Shown: positions 7,596 through 31,302, counted from the stretch's first letter. The stretch is DNA of 32,000 bases from Psychrobacter cryohalolentis K5 (GCF_000013905.1 NC_007969.1:2310001-2342000); one strand, 5' to 3'. The notes: generated by a model not told the origin, from the sequence alone. Program-made: numbers and translations.

Positions 7596-7731
7596 TTTTA
7601 TACCCCTTTAAGTCATTACTTTAGTTTAATCAACTTAATTAATAAGTTTACTTTACAAGCAACACTGATATTAGAAAAGCTAATCCATAAAACAATGACA
7701 CTAAGGCCGTTAAGAAAGCATTAAGATGCAC

Positions 7732-7767
7732 AAAAAAAGGCCTATCAATTTTGATAGGCCTTTTTTT
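7732..7767. terminator. Bidirectional rho-independent terminator downstream of the porin gene
   Basis: A7-AGGCCTATC-aatttt-GATAGGCCT-T7. Perfect 9-bp stem flanked by an A-run and a T-run. Confidence 0.75.
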
Positions 7768-7792
7768 ATGTTCTTACTTTATAATGATAGAT

Positions 7793-8878
7793 TTAGAATT
7801 TGTATTCTAGACCAGTACCGATAACGAATACTTCTGCATCACCACGTACATTAGTATATGAAGTAGCATTTGGAGTAGCTTTATATGCATAGTTAACATT
7901 ATCAGCTTTGTTCATACCAGCATAGGCATGAGCAATGATGTTGTCTTTATACATGTATTTGCCACCAACAACGATTTGATCTGAATCAGCATTATCAAAA
8001 CCATTTAAATTGTCAGTTTTGTTATACTGAGTATAGATAGACGCTGGGCGAGCAAAGTTAGCTAAAGGCATCTCAGCACTAATTACTAAGCCTTTTTCTT
8101 TCTCAGCACCTGTTATCTTGCCATTTCTATCAAGACCATCGTAATCAGCTACTTGATATAGCGCGCCTAGTGTTACAGGAGCAGCGATAAACTTGCTTAG
8201 ATCTACAGTAGCAGTACCACGGATGATATCACCGAGGATGTTTTGATCTTTATCATAAGCAACACCAGCAGTGAAGCCAGTACCTTGATCAAACAACATT
8301 GCTACGCCAAAGCCAGAGTTATCGTTACCATTTACATCATCAGAGCTATACATAGCAGATAATTGTAATGGTAGACCGTTATACTTAGGTGCAGTCCAGA
8401 TGATTGAACTTGCGATACGGTTACTATCAGCCATGTTTAATGCTTCAACAACTTCATTCTCATTTTGAGTAGTACCTAAGTTATCAAAATAACCTTGGTT
8501 AACAACAACGTTATCAATACGAGCAAGCGTTGATTGGTTTTTACCAACACGGAACTCACCAAATTGTTTGTTGTTTACACCAAGGAATGTATCACGGTTA
8601 GTAAAACCATTTTTATCACCATCAACCTTTGTGCCATACTCTAACTGATAGATAACATCAGTGTTAGCAGTCATAGCTTCAGAACCTTTAAAGCCTAAAC
8701 GTGAAGCATGAGAGTTGATCTCTACTGTATCTTCATCATACATGTTGCCAGCAGGGCCATCAAATTCAGCATTAACATAGTCCATAGCAACGAAAGCTTT
8801 ACCATAAACAGTTGGTGCTGCATTGGCTGCAGATACAGATAGGGCAGCGATTGCTGTAGCTAAAAGTAGTTTTTTCAT
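7793..8878 (-). CDS. Outer-membrane general porin (Gram-negative porin family)
   Basis: 361 aa. Signal peptide MKKLLLATAIAALSVSAANA-AP. Alternating beta-strand pattern rich in G/Y/N/D. C-terminal GLEYKF with terminal Phe. GGAG SD. Confidence 0.9.
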   Translation of the reverse strand: MKKLLLATAIAALSVSAANAAPTVYGKAFVAMDYVNAEFDGPAGNMYDEDTVEINSHASRLGFKGSEAMTANTDVIYQLEYGTKVDGDKNGFTNRDTFLGVNNKQFGEFRVGKNQSTLARIDNVVVNQGYFDNLGTTQNENEVVEALNMADSNRIASSIIWTAPKYNGLPLQLSAMYSSDDVNGNDNSGFGVAMLFDQGTGFTAGVAYDKDQNILGDIIRGTATVDLSKFIAAPVTLGALYQVADYDGLDRNGKITGAEKEKGLVISAEMPLANFARPASIYTQYNKTDNLNGFDNADSDQIVVGGKYMYKDNIIAHAYAGMNKADNVNYAYKATPNATSYTNVRGDAEVFVIGTGLEYKF

Positions 8879-9427: not shown

Positions 9428-11632
9428 TTAGCAGCCAACACTGGCTTTTAGATCTAGACGTGCTTGATGCAATAATGGCTCAGTATAACCACTTGGCTGC
9501 TCGCGACCTTTAAATACCAAATCACAAGCGGCTTTGAAAGCATAGGAGTTGTCCAAGTCAGTCGCCATTGGTTGATAATCAGCATCACCAGCGTTTTGCT
9601 CATCGACGATTTTAGCCATACGTTTCATAGCGTCCATCACTTGCTGCTCGCTGACAACATTATGGTGTAACCAATTGGCAATATGCTGACTTGAGATACG
9701 CAATGTCGCACGATCTTCCATCAAGCCGACGTCATTGATGTCAGGTACTTTAGAGCAACCAACGCCTTGGTTTACCCAACGTACGACATAGCCTAGGATA
9801 CCTTGAGCATTATTATCAATCTCTTGCTGTTTTTCTTCTTCAGTCCAATTGGTGTTTTTTGCCAATGGAATGGTTAAGATATCATCTACGCTAGCGCGCG
9901 CACGTGATTTCAGGCTGTCTTGAACCTCAGCAACATTGACTTTATGATAGTGCATGCTGTGTAAGGTAGCACCCGTTGGAGATGGCACCCACGCCGTATT
10001 AGCACCTGCCTGTGGATGGGCAATTTTGGTGTCCATCATCTCTTGCATTTCATCAGGTTTTGCCCACATGCCTTTACCAATCTGCGCGTGACCTTGTAAG
10101 CCTACTTCAAGACCGATATCGACGTTCCATTGCTCATAAGCAGGCAGCCACGTTTGCGACTTCATATCGCCTTTGCGGACAAATGGACCTGCATTCATAC
10201 TGGTGTGCATCTCATCACCTGTGCGATCTAAGAAGCCGGTATTGATGAAAATAACACGCTCTTTTGCTTGGCGAATGGCTTCTTTTAAGTTGACCGTCAT
10301 ACGGCGTTCTTCATCCATAATGCCGATCTTTATCGTATAACGCTCTAAGCCCAGTAGGTCTTCTGAGGCGTTAAATAAGTCATTCGCCATCTTCACCTCA
10401 TCAGGACCATGCATTTTTGGTTTAACAATATACATTGAACCTTTACGTGAGTTTGATAGCTCGGTTTTACCTTTTAAATCATTCAATGATAATAAAGGCG
10501 TAATCAAACCATCCATTAAACCTTCGAAAACCTCTTCTTGACCATTGCCTAAATCTACCAAAATCGATGGATTTTGCATGAGATGTCCGACGTTACGTAG
10601 CAATAAAAGTGAGCGACCTGGCAAGGTCAGCGTATCACCCTCTGGCGTAGTATATTCGCGATCAGGATTCTGTTTACGCGTACGGGTCTTGCCGCCTTTC
10701 TCAAAGGTTTCTTGCAAATCGCCATTCATCAAGCCAAACCAATTGCGATACGCTTCAACCTTCTCTTCTGCATCAACAGCAGCGATGGAGTCTTCACAAT
10801 CTTGTATCGCAGTCAGCGCCGACTCTAATAACACGTCTTTGATATGTGCAGGATCATCTTTGCCAATGGGATGATTGCCATCAACTTGAATCTCAGCATG
10901 CAAGTTATTGTTCTTTAATAACACAGCGCTAGGACTATCAGCGTCGCCTACGAAACCTGCAAACTGTGCGGCATCTTTTAGTTGCGTGCTGCTATCGCCT
11001 TGCGCAATTTCAAGCTTACCATCAACGACTCTAAAACCTGTTACATCGCTATAGGAGCCTGATGCTAAGGCAAAATTTTCATCTAGGAATTTTTTGGCAT
11101 AAGCGACGACGGCTGCGCCACGTGTTGGATTGTAGCCACCTTTTGCTTCTTGACCATTTTCATCACTGATAACATTGGTGCCATATAAAGCATCATATAA
11201 GCTGCCCCAACGCGCATTATTGGCGTTCAACGCATAGCGAGCATTACGTACTGGTACTACCAGCTGAGGTCCTGCAATACGGGCAATCTCATCATCGACG
11301 TTTTCTGTGCTGACACTGAACGCTTCGCCTTCTGGTAATAGGTAGCCAATTTCTTGTAAAAATGCTTTGTACGCTGGATAATCAATGTCGCCATTTTTGG
11401 TAGGATGTTGCAGGTGCCATTGGTCAATCTGTCCTTGAATCTTAGCACGCGTTGCAAGCAGTGCTTTATTACGTGGCGTAAACTCTTTGATGACCTTTTC
11501 GAAACCTGACCAGTAACCGTCTGAATCAATACCGACTTTCGGCAGCACTTCATTTTCGATAAAATCGAACAGCTGCTGATCAATGGCAAGAATGCCTTTT
11601 TGAACACGATTGGCATTAGAAGACTGGCTCAT
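9428..11632 (-). CDS. glcB: Malate synthase G
   Basis: 734 aa, the size of G-type malate synthases. Motifs [16 protein letters not shown] and [18 protein letters not shown] match the GlcB active-site region as I recall it. AGGA SD 7 nt upstream. Confidence 0.95.
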
Positions 11633-12252
11633 ACTGTTATCCTTATCTGTTTGTTAGATTTGTTGATACTGGGCTGCTAAAACATACCTCGTCCATGTAC
11701 ACAGTCATGCAAAAGGGCGCATAAAGCAGAGTTGTAAAGTAATAAATAAGCTACAAGCCAAGTAAATTTACTGCTGCATTACCTCGGCTGTCATTATTTG
11801 AGCGGTATTTAACGTTGTATTATCTAGATAGGTTTTACATAAAGATAGGCTATAAACCTTAGATTTTGAGACGCGATTGATAGTTGATATACTATTGGCT
11901 ACCTGCTATCAGTTGACAAGCAATAGTAAGACAAAATACGTTAAAAGCAAAATATTATCCTACTACCAAATAAGGCAATAAACAAGGAAACCCCATTTAG
12001 TAACTAAATGCTTGTGCTGTAGATAAATGATAGTCTATATACCATATGCGCCAGCAACGATTATCTTGCTATCCTATCCTATTAAATCACTCATAAGTAT
12101 AAACTGTAAGTAATCATTACGATATTAATTTATGCGTAACGGTTATCTATCATATCAAAGTAGTCTGAAGAGTTTAAATACATATCGCGCGTATATATCT
12201 ACTTTTTTTCATTATTTTATTCATCCACTCATCGATAAAGTCTAAGCAAACC

Positions 12253-13026
12253 ATGACCATAAACCAAGAAAATACATCCATACCTAAAACTACTTCTAAT
12301 TTGCAATCTGAGCCTTCAACTACAGTAGGGAGTCAATCTGTAATAGATTCTGAAAATAGCAGTAGTAATGATAGCGTTGATATCATTTCTATCACCCAAC
12401 TCAGCACGCCACTAAAGGTAGATTTATCGCCTATTTTTGATTTCTTGGGCGCACGAACCTCACAAGCTTGGGTCAACGCCGCTGTTAATAACTTACCACT
12501 GATTATTCAAGACCATGCCAATTGTGAAAAAAAGGCCGCCGGTACCGCGATGAATCTCATCTTTCGCTATGAGTTCTCTTATGATTTACAGCGTAAATTG
12601 GCACAATTGATACGTGAAGAAATGCTGCACTATGAGCAAGTGCTCGGCATTATGAATGAGCGCGGGCAAGCATGGAAATATCTAAGTGCTGGACGCTATG
12701 CCAAAGGGATGCTAAAACACAAGCGTACTTATGAACCCGCTGCAATGGTAGATGTGCTGATTATTGGTGCATTTATCGAGGCACGTTCTTGTGAGCGTTT
12801 TGCGGCACTTTCTGAGGTTATCAATGATGAGCGTTTGGCAAAATACTATCGTTATTTATTAAAATCAGAAAGCCGTCATTTTGAAGATTATTTGGCACTA
12901 GCGCAGTCATTGTCTGATGACAGTATCGATGAGCGTGTGGCATTCTTTAAAGAAGTAGAAGCAGAGCTGATATCAACTCCAGATACTGAGCTGCGCTTTC
13001 ATAGCGGCGACCCTATTGCTCTCTAA
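12253..13026 (+). CDS. miaE: tRNA-(ms2io6A37)-hydroxylase, with a polar N-terminal extension of about 55 aa
   Basis: Di-iron ferritin-like motifs: HANCEKKAAGTAM, REEMLHYEQV, IEARSCERFAAL, SESRHFEDYLALA. These are collinear with Salmonella MiaE as I recall it. The start is uncertain because the SD is weak, but there is no internal Met before the conserved core. Confidence 0.85.
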   Translation: MTINQENTSIPKTTSNLQSEPSTTVGSQSVIDSENSSSNDSVDIISITQLSTPLKVDLSPIFDFLGARTSQAWVNAAVNNLPLIIQDHANCEKKAAGTAMNLIFRYEFSYDLQRKLAQLIREEMLHYEQVLGIMNERGQAWKYLSAGRYAKGMLKHKRTYEPAAMVDVLIIGAFIEARSCERFAALSEVINDERLAKYYRYLLKSESRHFEDYLALAQSLSDDSIDERVAFFKEVEAELISTPDTELRFHSGDPIAL

Positions 13027-26966: not shown

Positions 26967-27779
26967 ATGTCTACATCATCATCGCTATCCCCTACTTTTA
27001 AGCGTGCTTTGCTTAACACGTTGACAGCTACTGCCATGCTTGGCGCAGCTAGCCTATCTAATGCAGCACTCTTCAATAAAAACCTACCGAAAGATCCTGA
27101 TGCTGAGTTAAGCGTCGGCGTCAACGTCATGGCAGTCAAATCTGCTTATGATTTGGAAGAAAGCACCGAGATAAAAGTATTGCCAGGCGTATTCTATGAC
27201 AATAATAAAATCTACGCACGCGGTGCTCAAGCGGGTGTATACCTTATCAATGACGGCAGCAATCAGCTAGCTGCTTATGCTCAGCTTGCTGGCAATTCAT
27301 TTGATCCTGATGATGCTACTGGCGCACTAAAAGGACTTGATGAGCGTAAAGCCTCTGCTGCTGCAGGCTTAAGCTATACGCGTCTGACGCCGGTTGGTGG
27401 CTTTCGTGCTCAATACGCAACAGATATCTTAGATCGTAGCGGCGGTAATACTGCCCGCTTAAGCTATATTGGTAAAATTAGCAAAAACAAGCTAACGGTC
27501 TATCCAAGCGTTGGATTTGAGTACAATGATGCCGACTACAATGAATACTATTATGGGGTAAGTGATACAGAGTCAACTAGAACTGGCGTCGCTGCTTATA
27601 CCGCCAACTCAAGCTTGAATCCTTATATTAATGTTAGTGCCAACTATGATTTCAGTAAGCGCTGGGCGGGCTTTGCCAATCAAAGCTTAAGCTATCTGCC
27701 AAATGAGCAATATGACAGTCCAATGGTTGACTCGCGTACTGATGCTACGACGACGCTTGGTTTGCTTTATAAGTTTTAA
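26967..27779 (+). CDS. mipA: MipA/OmpV-family outer-membrane protein (MltA-interacting scaffold family)
   Basis: 270 aa. Signal-like N-terminus (...ATAMLGAASLSNAA). VLPGVFYDNNKIYARGAQAGVYL is typical of MipA-family beta-barrels. C-terminal LLYKF. Confidence 0.85.
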   Translation: MSTSSSLSPTFKRALLNTLTATAMLGAASLSNAALFNKNLPKDPDAELSVGVNVMAVKSAYDLEESTEIKVLPGVFYDNNKIYARGAQAGVYLINDGSNQLAAYAQLAGNSFDPDDATGALKGLDERKASAAAGLSYTRLTPVGGFRAQYATDILDRSGGNTARLSYIGKISKNKLTVYPSVGFEYNDADYNEYYYGVSDTESTRTGVAAYTANSSLNPYINVSANYDFSKRWAGFANQSLSYLPNEQYDSPMVDSRTDATTTLGLLYKF

Positions 27780-27798
27780 TTAAGCACGTATATGAAAT

Positions 27799-27838
27799 AA
27801 AAAAAGACCTTGTCGCTTAATGTGGTAAGGTCTTTTTT
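27799..27838. terminator. Bidirectional terminator hairpin, copy A of a three-member family
   Basis: A7-AGACCTTGTCGC-ttaat-GTGGTAAGGTCT-T6. 12-bp stem including 3 G-U pairs. Serves convergent mipA (+) and the orphan gene (-). Confidence 0.75.
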
Positions 27839-27931
27839 ATTCTGTAATAGATACGAAACCTTAAACTTTCAACGCATTAAATCCTTCTAACTCAATCAAT
27901 ATATGCTCTTAAATTCATTAGTAGTAAAAAT

Positions 27932-28720
27932 TTAAGCAAGTTCCATATTTGTGGATCTTTTCAATAATTCTAAAATATCTGGACGATTTTCTAGAAGAAT
28001 TTTATTTAACATCTCTTGAATAAACGGAGCTACCCAGTACTGACTATTTTCAGGTGGCGTCATACCCATTTCTAAATGTTCTAAATAATCTGAAGAGACC
28101 ATGTAATGTTCATTAATTATAAAGATGTATGAAATATTAAGTATGAATACATTTCTAACATCTTTTCGCAATTGTTCAAGATGCTGAGAACGCTCTTTCA
28201 AATATATTCTGCCATCATTAAGCAATACTAAGGAAAAGAAATTGTAGTGCATATTATCATTGCAACGATTTCTAATACCTTCATAGCGCTGATTCAAGTC
28301 AATTAACTCATTAACTTCAGATAGAAACAAAGAGTTCTTTAAATATTTTGCCATCTTAGACATTCTTGGCAATGGCTTTTTACCATGCAGCCAATCATTG
28401 ATCTCAGCAACATAAAAATCTGCTATTTCTGAATTTTGATTGATATATAAATTTGTGTACGCATTGATCATGACAGAATCATAATATTTTCTTAATAACG
28501 CATAACCATCATTTAGATTACCATTTTTTAAAACTAAATCTATAGACTCTAAGGTGCCTCTCATGGACATATAAACATAAGTATCCATATTAGCAATTGC
28601 TGACGTACCTTTAGTCGAGAAGCTCATGACAGAGTTGGATAAAGACTCATAAAAGCTAGCATAATAATTAAGTTCTTCAAATATTTTATGGTCAGTATAT
28701 TCGGCATCCGTTGAATTCAT
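27932..28720 (-). CDS. Orphan low-G+C protein with a HEPN-like R-x3-N-x3-H motif; function unknown, possibly an Abi/toxin-type effector
   Basis: The ORF-track ORF (264 aa) starts at TTG 28726. The first ATG is at 28718-28720 (MNSTDAEY...). No signal peptide or TM segment, and a helix-like sequence pattern. IRNRCNDNMH is encoded at 28247-28273. Hand-counted G+C is about 27-32% on the two 60-nt lines counted, against about 55% on a mipA line. Confidence 0.8.
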   Translation of the reverse strand: MNSTDAEYTDHKIFEELNYYASFYESLSNSVMSFSTKGTSAIANMDTYVYMSMRGTLESIDLVLKNGNLNDGYALLRKYYDSVMINAYTNLYINQNSEIADFYVAEINDWLHGKKPLPRMSKMAKYLKNSLFLSEVNELIDLNQRYEGIRNRCNDNMHYNFFSLVLLNDGRIYLKERSQHLEQLRKDVRNVFILNISYIFIINEHYMVSSDYLEHLEMGMTPPENSQYWVAPFIQEMLNKILLENRPDILELLKRSTNMELA

Positions 28721-28870
28721 ATTCAAGTACTCTGTAGATATGGTAGTTTACTATCTTTTGATATTATTACTTATATCATAAATTGAAGAGATAAATAATG
28801 TCACAGAGTAGCGCAAAACTTTACCTACCTATTGAGGCTTTGCAAACTCTTAGCTCCAAAAATTTAACCG

Positions 28871-28910
28871 AAAAAAAGACCTTGCCACATAACGTGACAA
28901 GGTCTTTTTT
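28871..28910. terminator. Bidirectional terminator hairpin, copy B
   Basis: A7-GACCTTGCCAC-ataac-GTGACAAGGTC-T6, with one C-A mismatch. Lies downstream of the peroxiredoxin gene. Confidence 0.75.
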
Positions 28911-28932
28911 ATTTCTAACTTCTCAATAGAAC

Positions 28933-29460
28933 CTAAGCATTACTTTTTAAATACGCTAACATAGTGTCTGCATCTGATACTTCAAATGGGTCTATTGGAC
29001 AGTTGTCGCCAAAATCAGCTTCCTTAAACACTTTTTTAACTTCTTTATTGTCGACAACCATCGAATAACGCCATGAGCGCATACCAAAGCCAACATTACT
29101 CTTATCAACAAGCATCCCCATTTTACGAGTGAACTCACCATTACCATCAGGCAGTAAGAAAACATTTTCACGGTTTTGCTTCAGACCCCATTGGTACATG
29201 ACGAACGCATCATTAACAGAAATGCAAACTATTTCATCTATGCCTAATGCCTTAAACTCATTATAAAGCGCTTCATAACGAGGGAGATGGCTGGTCGAAC
29301 AAGTTGGCGTAAACGCACCTGGTAGAGAAAACACAACCACTTTTTTATTGGCAAATAACTCATCTGTGGTTAGATCATACCATGTGAACGGGTTGTCTCC
29401 TCCAATAGAGTCATCACGAACACGAGTTTTAAAAGTCATATCAGGTATATGGGTAATCAT
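28933..29460 (-). CDS. Prx5-type (atypical 2-Cys) peroxiredoxin
   Basis: 175 aa. VVVFSLPGAFTPTCS peroxidatic-Cys motif characteristic of the Prx5 subfamily. GGAG SD 6 nt upstream. Confidence 0.9.
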   Translation of the reverse strand: MITHIPDMTFKTRVRDDSIGGDNPFTWYDLTTDELFANKKVVVFSLPGAFTPTCSTSHLPRYEALYNEFKALGIDEIVCISVNDAFVMYQWGLKQNRENVFLLPDGNGEFTRKMGMLVDKSNVGFGMRSWRYSMVVDNKEVKKVFKEADFGDNCPIDPFEVSDADTMLAYLKSNA

Positions 29461-29596
29461 TGTTTACTCCGATTTAGGTTATTGTCTTTTTTTCCAAAAT
29501 TCTGCATGTATATGATAATAGTTATAGTAGTCCATAAGCAATCTTTGAGATTACATTCACTATATAAGATGTAGATCTAGCCTTAAAAATATAAAC

Positions 29597-29645
29597 AAAA
29601 AAAACCTTGCCACATTCTCATATAAGAAGTGACAAGGTCTTTTTA
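29597..29645. terminator. Bidirectional terminator hairpin, copy C
   Basis: A8-CCTTGCCAC, 15-nt loop, GTGACAAGG-TCTTTTT. Lies downstream of fumC. Confidence 0.7.
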
Positions 29646-29755: not shown

Positions 29756-31159
29756 TTATCTAGGATTTACCATATCAGCAGGAATTACCCACTCATCAAA
29801 CTGTGCTTCAGTTAATAGCTCTAACTCAACCGCAACTTGCTTCAAGGTTTTGTTTTCTTTATAAGCAGTCTTAGCGATTTTTGCGGCATTCTCATAACCA
29901 ACATGACGGTTAAGCGCAGTCACTAGCATCAATGAGTTGTGCAAGAAGTCATCGATTTTGTCTTTTACTGGCTGGATACCAACAGCACAGTTTTCATTAA
30001 AGCTATTGCACGCATCGCCAAGCAGTTTGATAGATTGCAACAAGTTAAACGCGATAACTGGCTTATAAACGTTTAGCTCAAAGTTACCTGACGCGCCTGC
30101 CATGCTGATAGTGACATCGTTACCCATGACTTGCGCCACAACCATGGTCATTGCTTCTGACTGCGTTGGGTTTACTTTGCCCGGCATGATAGAAGAGCCT
30201 GGCTCATTCTCAGGAATCGTCAACTCGCCCAAACCACAACGAGGACCTGATGCCAACCAACGTACGTCGTTAGCGATTTTATTCAAGCTACTTGCTAGCG
30301 TTTTTAATGCGCCTGACGCAAATACTTCGGCATCACGAGCAGCTAGTGCTTCAAATTTATTCGGTGACGTCACAAATGGAAGACCAGACAATGTCGCCAA
30401 TTGCTCAGCTGATTTTACTGCATAATCAGGATGGGCGTTTAGACCTGTACCAACCGCCGTACCGCCTAATGGCAATTCATACAAGCCTTGTAGCGCATTA
30501 TCAATACGTACCAATGAATGATCAAGTTGGCTAACATAGCCGCTAAACTCTTGACCTAAAGTCAAAGGCGTGGCGTCTTGTAAATGCGTACGACCGATTT
30601 TCACGATGCTATCGAATTCTTTTGCTTTAGCATCTAGCGTATCACGCAGGGCTTTTACCGCTGGAATCAATAAGCCGTTGATTTCACGAGCAGCGGCAAC
30701 ACGAATCGCCGTTGGGAAGCTATCATTGGTAGATTGAGCATGATTTACATGGTCATTTGGGTGAATCGGCGTATAGCTGCCGCGCGCGTTCCCTGCGATT
30801 TCATTGGCACGATTCGCTAATACTTCATTCATATTCATGTTTGATTGAGTACCAGAACCGGTCTGCCAAACGACTAGCGGAAACTGATCGGTTAGACCAC
30901 CGTTGATAACTTCATCAGCAGCTTGTACGATTAAATCGCGCTTATCATCTTCGATACGCTCAAGGCTCGCATTGGTAATCGCAGCGGCTTTTTTGACCAG
31001 TGCCATCGCTTCAATCATCGGACGCGGCAAGGTCTCGCCACCGATTTTAAAGTTTTCGCGGCTACGTTGGGTTTGTGCACCCCAATAAGCGTCAGCTGGG
31101 ACTTCTACATTGCCCATGGTGTCTTTTTCGGTACGAGTTGCCTGATTCTGTGTTGACAT
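29756..31159 (-). CDS. fumC: Class II fumarate hydratase
   Basis: The ORF-track ORF extends to 31285, but the conserved N-terminus [33 protein letters not shown] begins at the internal ATG (complement of 31157-31159). Signature [16 protein letters not shown]. About 467 aa. Confidence 0.95.
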
Positions 31160-31302
31160 AACTACCCTCTTTGATGGTTTGGTAATGAATGGTTTGTCAT
31201 AAAAAGTGCAACAGCTGCTGCACACAAAGAAAAATACGCTGTAAAGTGGCGTTATGATAGCATGACTTATCACAAATTTCTCCACGTCCGTGAGGGTAAC
31301 TG

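Follow-up and report, generated by a model that had tools for sequence, protein, structure and literature searches.

Here we analyze a 32,000-nucleotide stretch of the genome of Psychrobacter cryohalolentis K5 (GCF_000013905.1 NC_007969.1:2310001-2342000; hereafter the window) with a focus on a solitary minus-strand gene of low G+C content, whose product exactly matches WP_011514212.1 / UniProt Q1Q9I4, an entry of this strain labeled "hypothetical protein". We find that this gene (the window gene) is cargo of a defense hotspot: it occupies a strain-variable interval between the core genes mipA and fumC in which sister strains carry known defense systems, and it belongs to a widespread, horizontally spreading protein family whose function may lie in anti-phage immunity. 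An earlier note on this DNA, written from the sequence alone, had described a horizontally acquired single-gene defense or toxin module of the HEPN type. The acquisition and the nature of the gene as strain-variable lone cargo of that type were borne out, whereas the HEPN identity was not.

A strain-variable defense hotspot between mipA and fumC

To describe the interval, we surveyed 80 metagenomic loci encoding MipA relatives (single loci are denoted by L and a number) and located on each of them mipA, the window gene, prx (a peroxiredoxin-like gene) and fumC. At one extreme, in L130, the interval is an empty site of 97 bp containing a single hairpin; at the other, it contains about 5 kb of cargo. 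The cargo proteins fall into roughly 60 clusters. The window gene fills the slot in one of the 80 loci (L094, 100% identical), and other searches recovered it from L005, L011 and the Psychrobacter immobilis locus L012. At loci of nearly the same species, in which mipA is 97 to 100% and prx 99 to 100% identical, the slot holds other cargo, namely the LmuA and LmuB genes of a Lamassu system (L160), an Mrr_cat+AAA protein together with an AAA_35/TPR protein (L093), or small unknown proteins (L092). The state that the earlier note had named as refuting its proposal, presence at this site in every relative together with native composition, is clearly not what these loci show.

Further cargo of the hotspot includes HigBA-like toxin-antitoxin pairs (clusters C3/C7), the genes from other strains listed in Table 1 and, identified only by visual inspection, a C5-methyltransferase accompanied by a restriction enzyme as well as a TnpB-like gene. 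Many other cargo proteins carry no annotation, for example those of 709 (L101), 430 (L151), 292 (L167), 266 (L161) and 277 residues (L113); by eye, two such proteins contain HEPN-like R-x4-H strings, YELRCRIVH and LRDFRNYIH. The prx gene forms a second, independently variable, hairpin-bounded cassette, which is absent from L005 and L012 and is the sole cargo of L102, L106, L110 and L112.

A single-gene cassette bracketed by terminator-type hairpins

Mechanical calling of the open reading frame (ORF) yields 264 residues from a TTG codon (27932..28726, minus strand). Since the homologues are all 262 residues long and begin with MNSTD or MQSTD, we take the ATG at 28720 to be the real start. The G+C content is 0.307 for the ORF (0.287 at third codon positions) and 0.304 for the entire insert between the hairpins, compared with 0.427 for the window, 0.448 for mipA, 0.482 for lldD and 0.39 to 0.48 for the neighboring genes. 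The low-G+C minus-strand ORF of 262 to 264 residues described in the earlier note was thereby confirmed. Its claim that the gene is monocistronic also stood, given the flanking hairpins, a promoter-like site upstream, and the lack of a conserved small ORF and of an Rfam match in the cassette. The −10 block of the promoter-like site and the sequence proximal to the ribosome-binding site are conserved in four orthologous loci.

The two palindromes that delimit the cassette, H1 and H2, are 86% identical over 43 nt, a pattern with a chance expectation of 0.00 in the window. Because both form stable folds whichever strand is considered (−12.5 to −23.7 kcal/mol, z −5.5 to −8.8) and are flanked on each side by U-runs, we class them as bidirectional terminator-type hairpins. 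The earlier note had recognized this near-identical pair around the gene and had overlooked a third copy (H3). Between hairpins and gene, little room is left: the cassette extends only about 145 bp upstream and about 90 bp downstream of the coding sequence, and much of this space is occupied by the hairpins.

Throughout the Psychrobacter mipA-fumC interval, each cargo segment is bracketed by a copy of one hairpin with the arm AAGACCTTGNCAC. The empty site has one copy, the window three, and each cargo adds one. Matches to the arm are concentrated at the hotspot rather than spread over the window (six of eight lie there, with 0.36 expected by chance), and the left arm reads GTCGC in mipA-proximal copies and GCCAC in internal and fumC-proximal copies. 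H2 is virtually identical to the sole hairpin of the empty site (L130:5738-5777), and L012 has copies at 9843-9880 and 10910-10947. Homologues in Shewanella and Photobacterium have no such brackets, so these were rejected as a trait of the gene family and assigned to the Psychrobacter locus. We found no integrase or transposase in the mipA-fumC interval, and inspection of the hairpins by eye, which considered integron attC and Xer/dif sites, revealed no matching core sequence. In some strains, repetitive extragenic palindromic (REP)-like, G+C-rich repeats (e.g., GGGTGCGCCCAGCGCACC) replace genes in the hotspot (L134:5800-6120; L139:4400-4900; L011:1107-1443), and in L134 they are the sole content between two hairpin copies.

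In its variable interval, its differing defense cargo and its lack of an integrase or transposase of its own, the locus is similar to the core-gene-flanked defense hotspots of P. aeruginosa and Acinetobacter; the "minimal mobile elements" of Neisseria are a comparable variable interval between conserved core genes. What sets the Psychrobacter locus apart from these is the native terminator hairpin that brackets each cassette and is present as one copy in the empty site, an arrangement that, to our knowledge, has no counterpart in those hotspots. Core-gene-flanked defense hotspots without an obvious mobilizing mechanism are described in PMC11723918.

A widespread family of horizontally spreading genes

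The earlier note had called the gene an orphan, a term that no longer fits. A first search returned at least 322 homologues, nearly all of 262 residues, none with a Pfam domain and all named hypothetical, and searching 1.84 billion cluster representatives with a profile yielded 618 clusters (50% identity) at E ≤ 1e-3, with lengths tightly around 262 residues. A scan of 185,579 genomes, one per species, recovered relatives in at least 144 of them, from many phyla. The hosts include Psychrobacter, Shewanella, Photobacterium and Aeromonas and, at 42 to 52% identity, Bacteroidota, Planctomycetota, Verrucomicrobiota, Chloroflexota, Desulfobacterota, Patescibacteria and a few archaeal metagenome bins. 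By eye, no fused domain could be recognized in the N-terminal extensions that a few members carry. The family has no Pfam model and no recognizable fold relative; the sequence of the window gene is public yet unnamed and unstudied.

In 77 of 80 genomes, the G+C content of the gene is below that of its flanks (mean difference, 0.113). The ratio of nonsynonymous to synonymous substitution rates (dN/dS) between the window gene and three Psychrobacter orthologues is 0.09 to 0.14, next to 0.12 for mipA, and the gene is under purifying selection in this genus. The low G+C content relative to the flanks, combined with a dN/dS like that of mipA, therefore indicates a working gene that is spreading horizontally. 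When L011:316-2297 is compared with window positions 26967-28720, the cargo gene is 75% and mipA 58% identical at the amino acid level (dS of 1.6 versus 2.6), a pattern compatible with later swapping of the cassette between Psychrobacter species. Carriage by phages or plasmids was considered and dismissed: 50,697 phage records contained no relative, 2.9 million IMG/VR contigs contained one, and 72,556 plasmids contained two. The one viral contig from IMG/VR encodes a relative of 50% identity (L172:4898-5665).

No neighboring gene is conserved across 80 genomes. The largest neighbor cluster occurs at 6 of the 80 loci and probably consists of integrases, judging from Phage_integrase genes beside one member locus. 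The 148 immediate neighbors include AbiJ/Abi_C (three to four), TIR (three), Mrr (three), HamA, DRT reverse transcriptases, ThsB, bSEFIR, nSTAND3, BrxH and numerous PADLOC candidates, and housekeeping genes occur among them as well. By a conservative raw count, at least about 17 of the 148 match defense models strongly. A related protein is encoded on the same strand directly upstream of the homologue in L047, L070, L072 and L073 (three Planctomycetota and one Bacteroidota). It measures about 300 residues in L072 and L073 and 436 in L047 and is split in L070; as the only recurrent adjacent gene seen, it may encode a lineage-specific partner.

Within the cassette itself, the sole extra ORF, a divergent one of 43 codons (28798-28929, plus strand), was examined as a hidden partner and discarded, being conserved in neither L012 nor L011, and an Rfam search of the cassette matched no family, giving only sub-threshold matches driven by the hairpins. 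Because there is no conserved neighbor, no conserved extra ORF and no Rfam match, a classical two-gene toxin-antitoxin layout is unlikely; the adjacent, co-conserved partner of type II toxin-antitoxin systems was not found at these loci. This agrees with the earlier note, which had seen no partner gene beside the window gene.

Two conserved polar helices and a DUF4145-like motif

The window protein contains the motif IRNRCNDNMHYN to which the earlier note had drawn attention. In an alignment of 34 relatives (46 to 92% identity), R152, R154, C155, H160, Y161 and N162 are invariant, and among close relatives the whole stretch R152-x-R154-C-N-D-x-x-H160-Y-N162 does not vary. Among 79 diverse members, down to 26% identity, R152 is retained in 82%, N156 in 85%, H160 in 99% and N162 in 92%, while R154 is found in only 51%; in a second polar helix, D73, L77 and R79 each reach 97%. 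Near-invariant positions in these 79 members are Y26, S61, D73, L77, R79, W112, H160, N162, N170 and H197. Given the low conservation of R154, the signature of the family is R-x3-N-x3-H-x-N together with an upstream D-x3-L-x-R-K helix, not R-x5-H, so the inner R-x5-H stressed in the earlier note is not a family-wide feature. An AlphaFold2 (AF2) model based on the 34-sequence alignment predicts an all-helical, soluble-looking bundle (predicted local distance difference test [pLDDT], 88; predicted template modeling score, 0.89).

The HEPN, DUF4145 or AbiV assignment made in the earlier note was examined against a real DUF4145 protein from the same hotspot in another strain (Pfam E 3.5e-15, motif VRITGNNAVHPG). 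The likeness has several sides. DUF4145 and other HEPN-clan single-gene defense proteins (e.g., of the PD-T7-4 type) have in common with the window protein an R-x3-N-x3-H at the C-terminal end of a helix and a preceding "ALLR" helix, and both are single-gene, low-G+C cargo; the family of the hotspot's DUF4145 protein has a Psychrobacter/Vibrio/Shewanella distribution similar to that of the window family. The conserved pair R152-x7-H160 lies outside the canonical Rx4-6H and equals the DUF4145 spacing, R154-x5-H160 being invariant in close relatives only, and some divergent members are more DUF4145-like (LRQFCNNNVHYN and RKLCNNNVHYN). The order of the helices is also alike in the AF2 models of the two proteins. 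At the level of aligned motifs, we regard the resemblance to DUF4145 as real.

Profile and fold comparisons do not extend this resemblance. At E ≤ 0.1, none of the 79 members matched a HEPN-clan (CL0291) or similar Pfam family, such as DUF4145, HEPN_AbiV, Abi_2 or Abi_C, and neither did the window protein at E ≤ 10; PADLOC gave weak matches to Csx1/Csm6 (CARF+HEPN) in one to three of the 79 members (best E, 1e-4). An hhalign comparison of the family alignment with an alignment built from the family of the hotspot's DUF4145 protein gave a probability of 0.2% in local and 0.07% in global mode, over 8 columns pairing RCNDNMHY with TGNNAVHP. Once the variable insert had been taken out, sub-alignments matched DAYALLR to GAAALLR (P 0.016) and one R-x3-N-x3-H helix to the other (P 0.048), and the order of the two pairs agreed between the families. 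These matches are short, individually weak and from sub-regions picked after seeing the data. Since local, global, low-MAC (maximum accuracy) and insert-removed runs matched the motifs only, homology to DUF4145 was rejected. A Foldseek search of the PDB with the pLDDT-88 model returned no HEPN chain in the top 50 (best E, 0.44). This negative carries some weight because a weaker control, the pLDDT-73 AF2 model of the real DUF4145 protein, did retrieve HEPN toxins (7ae6, 5yep, 6m6w, 7bxo, 1wwp, 1wty and 1ylm in its top 50). In the model we found no four-helix up-down bundle that could be superposed on known HEPN structures. In contrast to DUF4145, the window protein comprises 262 residues with additional helices and an insert of 50 residues; missing from it is the zinc-ribbon-like N-terminal beta domain of the hotspot's DUF4145 protein. 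Membership in HEPN or DUF4145 is not supported; the DUF4145-type spacing proposed in the earlier note stood, joined by an upstream "ALLR" helix in the same order, and homology of profile and fold did not.

Nearest known families

Searches of the window protein against Pfam, NCBIfam, PHROGs, PADLOC and PDB sequences gave nothing above threshold, and in particular the Pfam, NCBIfam and PDB results uphold the view of the earlier note that it belongs to no housekeeping family. DUF5677 (PF18928) is the only recurring, sub-threshold family signal in these sequence comparisons: 28 of the 79 members match it at E ≤ 0.1, over family residues of about 42 to 150 and profile positions 4 to 111 of 166 (best score, 26.6 bits against a gathering cut-off of 27.1), the window protein itself giving no match. 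The D73-D83 helix lies within the stretch that gives sub-threshold matches to DUF6988, DUF5677 and PDC-S52.

Like this family, DUF5677 is all-helical, and the sub-threshold matches of the 28 members cover the first two thirds of its profile; it occurs in DitA of the Aditi defense system, for which we know of no described mechanism. In contrast to Aditi, the window protein stands alone, with no DitB-like partner and no match to the PADLOC model of DitA. According to PMC13092281, the two-gene Aditi system has DUF5677 at the C terminus of its DitA protein; this domain is without a listed Pfam clan, while DUF4145 and HEPN_AbiV are placed under CL0291. DUF6988 (PF22491) gave the sole Pfam match of the window protein (E 1.4e-3, residues 60-141, 18.9 bits against a cut-off of 27), and 8 of 34 and 5 of 79 members match it weakly. 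PMC13092281 also newly implicates DUF6988 in defense via gene 3 of a three-gene system. That system, DS-15 "AAA1" of DefensePredictor, comprises three genes with an ATPase and a DUF6988-like third gene, whereas the window gene is single.

Proposed function and competing explanations

Starting from the observed anatomy, conservation, purifying selection, horizontal spread, solitary state and hotspot location of the gene, we propose that it is one of the interchangeable cargo cassettes of the defense hotspot between the convergent core genes mipA and fumC, and that it encodes a self-contained, all-helical member of a widespread, horizontally moving, unnamed family. The protein would most likely be a stand-alone anti-phage factor of the abortive-infection type, sensing infection and acting upon it. 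The two polar helices, contributing D73/R79/D83 and R152/N156/H160/N162 with N170, form a candidate active or ligand site, and the cassette was probably acquired when strains exchanged this interval, via the conserved flanks or the repeated terminator hairpin. Single-gene cargo in a defense hotspot is well known as a type, with hundreds of similar candidates. A defense role, judged from this context, is somewhat favored in our view, and the explanation as a whole appears evenly poised between right and wrong. Cleavage of nucleic acid, probably RNA, by HEPN-like arginine and histidine chemistry through the R152/N156/H160 helix with D73/R79 is a tentative suggestion, rather doubtful, drawn from the conserved residues.

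Several points weigh against a defense role or against this chemistry. The protein has no above-threshold match to a validated defense protein, the case is computational throughout, and the HEPN-like chemistry is read from a short motif. Residue 197 (codon 28136-28138) is H in 91% of the family but N in the window protein; the Psychrobacter/Shewanella/Vibrio subclade carries N or S there, which may reflect a functional shift of this subclade. A link to the validated DS-15 DUF6988-like protein was pursued and abandoned at hhalign probabilities of 0.7% (single sequence) and 0.9% (family profile). The PADLOC model PDC-S52 matches the window protein at E 0.03 and 3 of the 79 members (best, 1.2e-3), all below significance, and the PDC systems, proposed from "guilt-by-embedding", are themselves untested candidates (bioRxiv 10.1101/2024.01.29.577857). 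In Enterococcus, the one DUF5677 gene that was assayed was not among the protective ORFs (PMC12632615). Finally, since the hotspot also carries non-defense cargo, namely prx, transporter-like and Hsp20-like proteins (both named by eye) and REP-like repeats, location alone is not proof of defense.

That mixed cargo, together with the many housekeeping genes among the neighbors of homologues and the lack of a match above threshold to any validated defense family, would also fit a gene without immune function, such as an accessory enzyme or regulator (stress-related, for example, like the prx cassette) riding in a recombination-prone interval. We hold this possible and on balance rather improbable: most of the identifiable hotspot cargo is defense or toxin-antitoxin, the strong defense-model matches among the neighbors point the same way, and extreme patchiness, low G+C content and a lone state are typical of defense cargo. 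A true but highly diverged HEPN member of the DUF4145 kind, that is, a metal-independent RNase toxin acting as a dimer with a composite R/H active site, would account for the R152-x3-N156-x3-H160 spacing, identical to that of the DUF4145 signature, for the divergent members, for the motifs paired by hhalign and the upstream helices paired in order by its sub-alignments, for the like helix order in the AF2 models and for the weak Csx1/Csm6 HEPN matches in a few members. Against it stand the lack of any HEPN-clan Pfam match in the 79 members, full-length hhalign probabilities of 0.1 to 0.2%, the weak and post hoc sub-alignment matches, a Foldseek top 50 free of HEPN where the weaker DUF4145 control finds HEPN toxins, an R-x7-H outside Rx4-6H combined with a poorly conserved R154, and a nearest Pfam family, DUF5677, without a listed clan. 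We consider this alternative unlikely.

The toxin of a pair whose antitoxin escaped recognition (such as a small RNA, a very short peptide or a gene at another site) is very improbable. Such pairs do occur in the same hotspot (C3/C7) and the 43-codon divergent ORF offers a nominal partner, but this ORF is not conserved, the Rfam search gave no match, no neighbor is conserved in the 80 genomes, and the short, largely hairpin-filled flanks leave little space. The most far-reaching version of our proposal, a new, fold-distinct, single-protein anti-phage system that joins sensing and killing within 262 residues, with an R-x3-N-x3-H helix of independent origin or diverged from HEPN past recognition, housed in an integrase-free, integron-like array of cassettes that recombine at hairpins, strikes us as quite improbable, short of implausible.

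If the gene does act in defense, an uncharacterized and widespread single-gene family (618 clusters, many bacterial phyla and a few archaeal bins) would join the bacterial immune repertoire, with D73, R79, R152, N156, H160 and N162 on offer as mutational targets and, as a natural comparison, the DUF4145 gene found in this slot in sister strains. The hotspot is compact and without mobility genes (core gene, hairpin, cargo, hairpin, core gene), which makes it a tractable site for studying how immune cassettes are swapped in naturally competent bacteria, and its roughly 60 cargo clusters, many without annotation, provide a search window for more unknown defense genes. Should exchange through the hairpins be correct, the terminator would double as a portable recombination site.

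Features of the window and of related loci

Table 1. Coordinates of the window gene, its cassette and flanking genes, and of other cargo in the slot. Positions refer to the window unless preceded by a locus.
Feature	Coordinates	Strand	Basis
Coding sequence of the 262-residue protein (WP_011514212.1 / Q1Q9I4)	27932..28720, stop codon included	-	homologue starts, dN/dS, AF2 model
Codons for R152-N-R-C-N156-D-N-M-H160, signature helix R-x3-N-x3-H, followed by N162	28247..28273	-	alignments of relatives
Codons for D73-G-Y-A-L-L-R79-K-Y-Y-D83, second conserved polar helix	28478..28510	-	alignments of relatives
Promoter-like site GTGACA-18-TATGAT, putative, activity not implied	28775..28804	-	consensus match and conservation
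Hairpin H1, bidirectional terminator-type palindrome at the mipA/gene boundary, left cassette edge	27799..27841	.	palindrome search, folding
Hairpin H2, right cassette edge	28871..28913	.	palindrome search, folding, comparison with L130
Hairpin H3, same stem and longer loop, between prx and fumC	about 29588..29645	.	repeat search, folding
mipA, conserved left flank of the hotspot	26967..27779	+	ORF call, locus comparison
prx, 175-residue peroxiredoxin-like gene, named by eye and after the earlier note	28933..29460	-	locus comparison
fumC, class II fumarase-like ORF named by eye, conserved right flank, convergent with mipA	29756..31285	-	ORF call, locus comparison
Lamassu LmuA/LmuB	L160:256-3658		PADLOC E 1e-141 and 1e-214
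Mrr_cat+AAA protein and AAA_35/TPR protein	L093:3743-6274
Small unknown proteins in the slot	L092
NsnA and HEPN_RiboL-PSP protein	L149:650-2867
OLD/AriA/GajA-like ATPase	L164:378-2180
DUF4145	L157:444-1115
DUF4238	L116:5944-7044

Further patches of low G+C content lie elsewhere in the window, at 7601-8000 (0.315) and 12001-12400 (0.320), compared with the mean of 0.427, and these could be acquired too.

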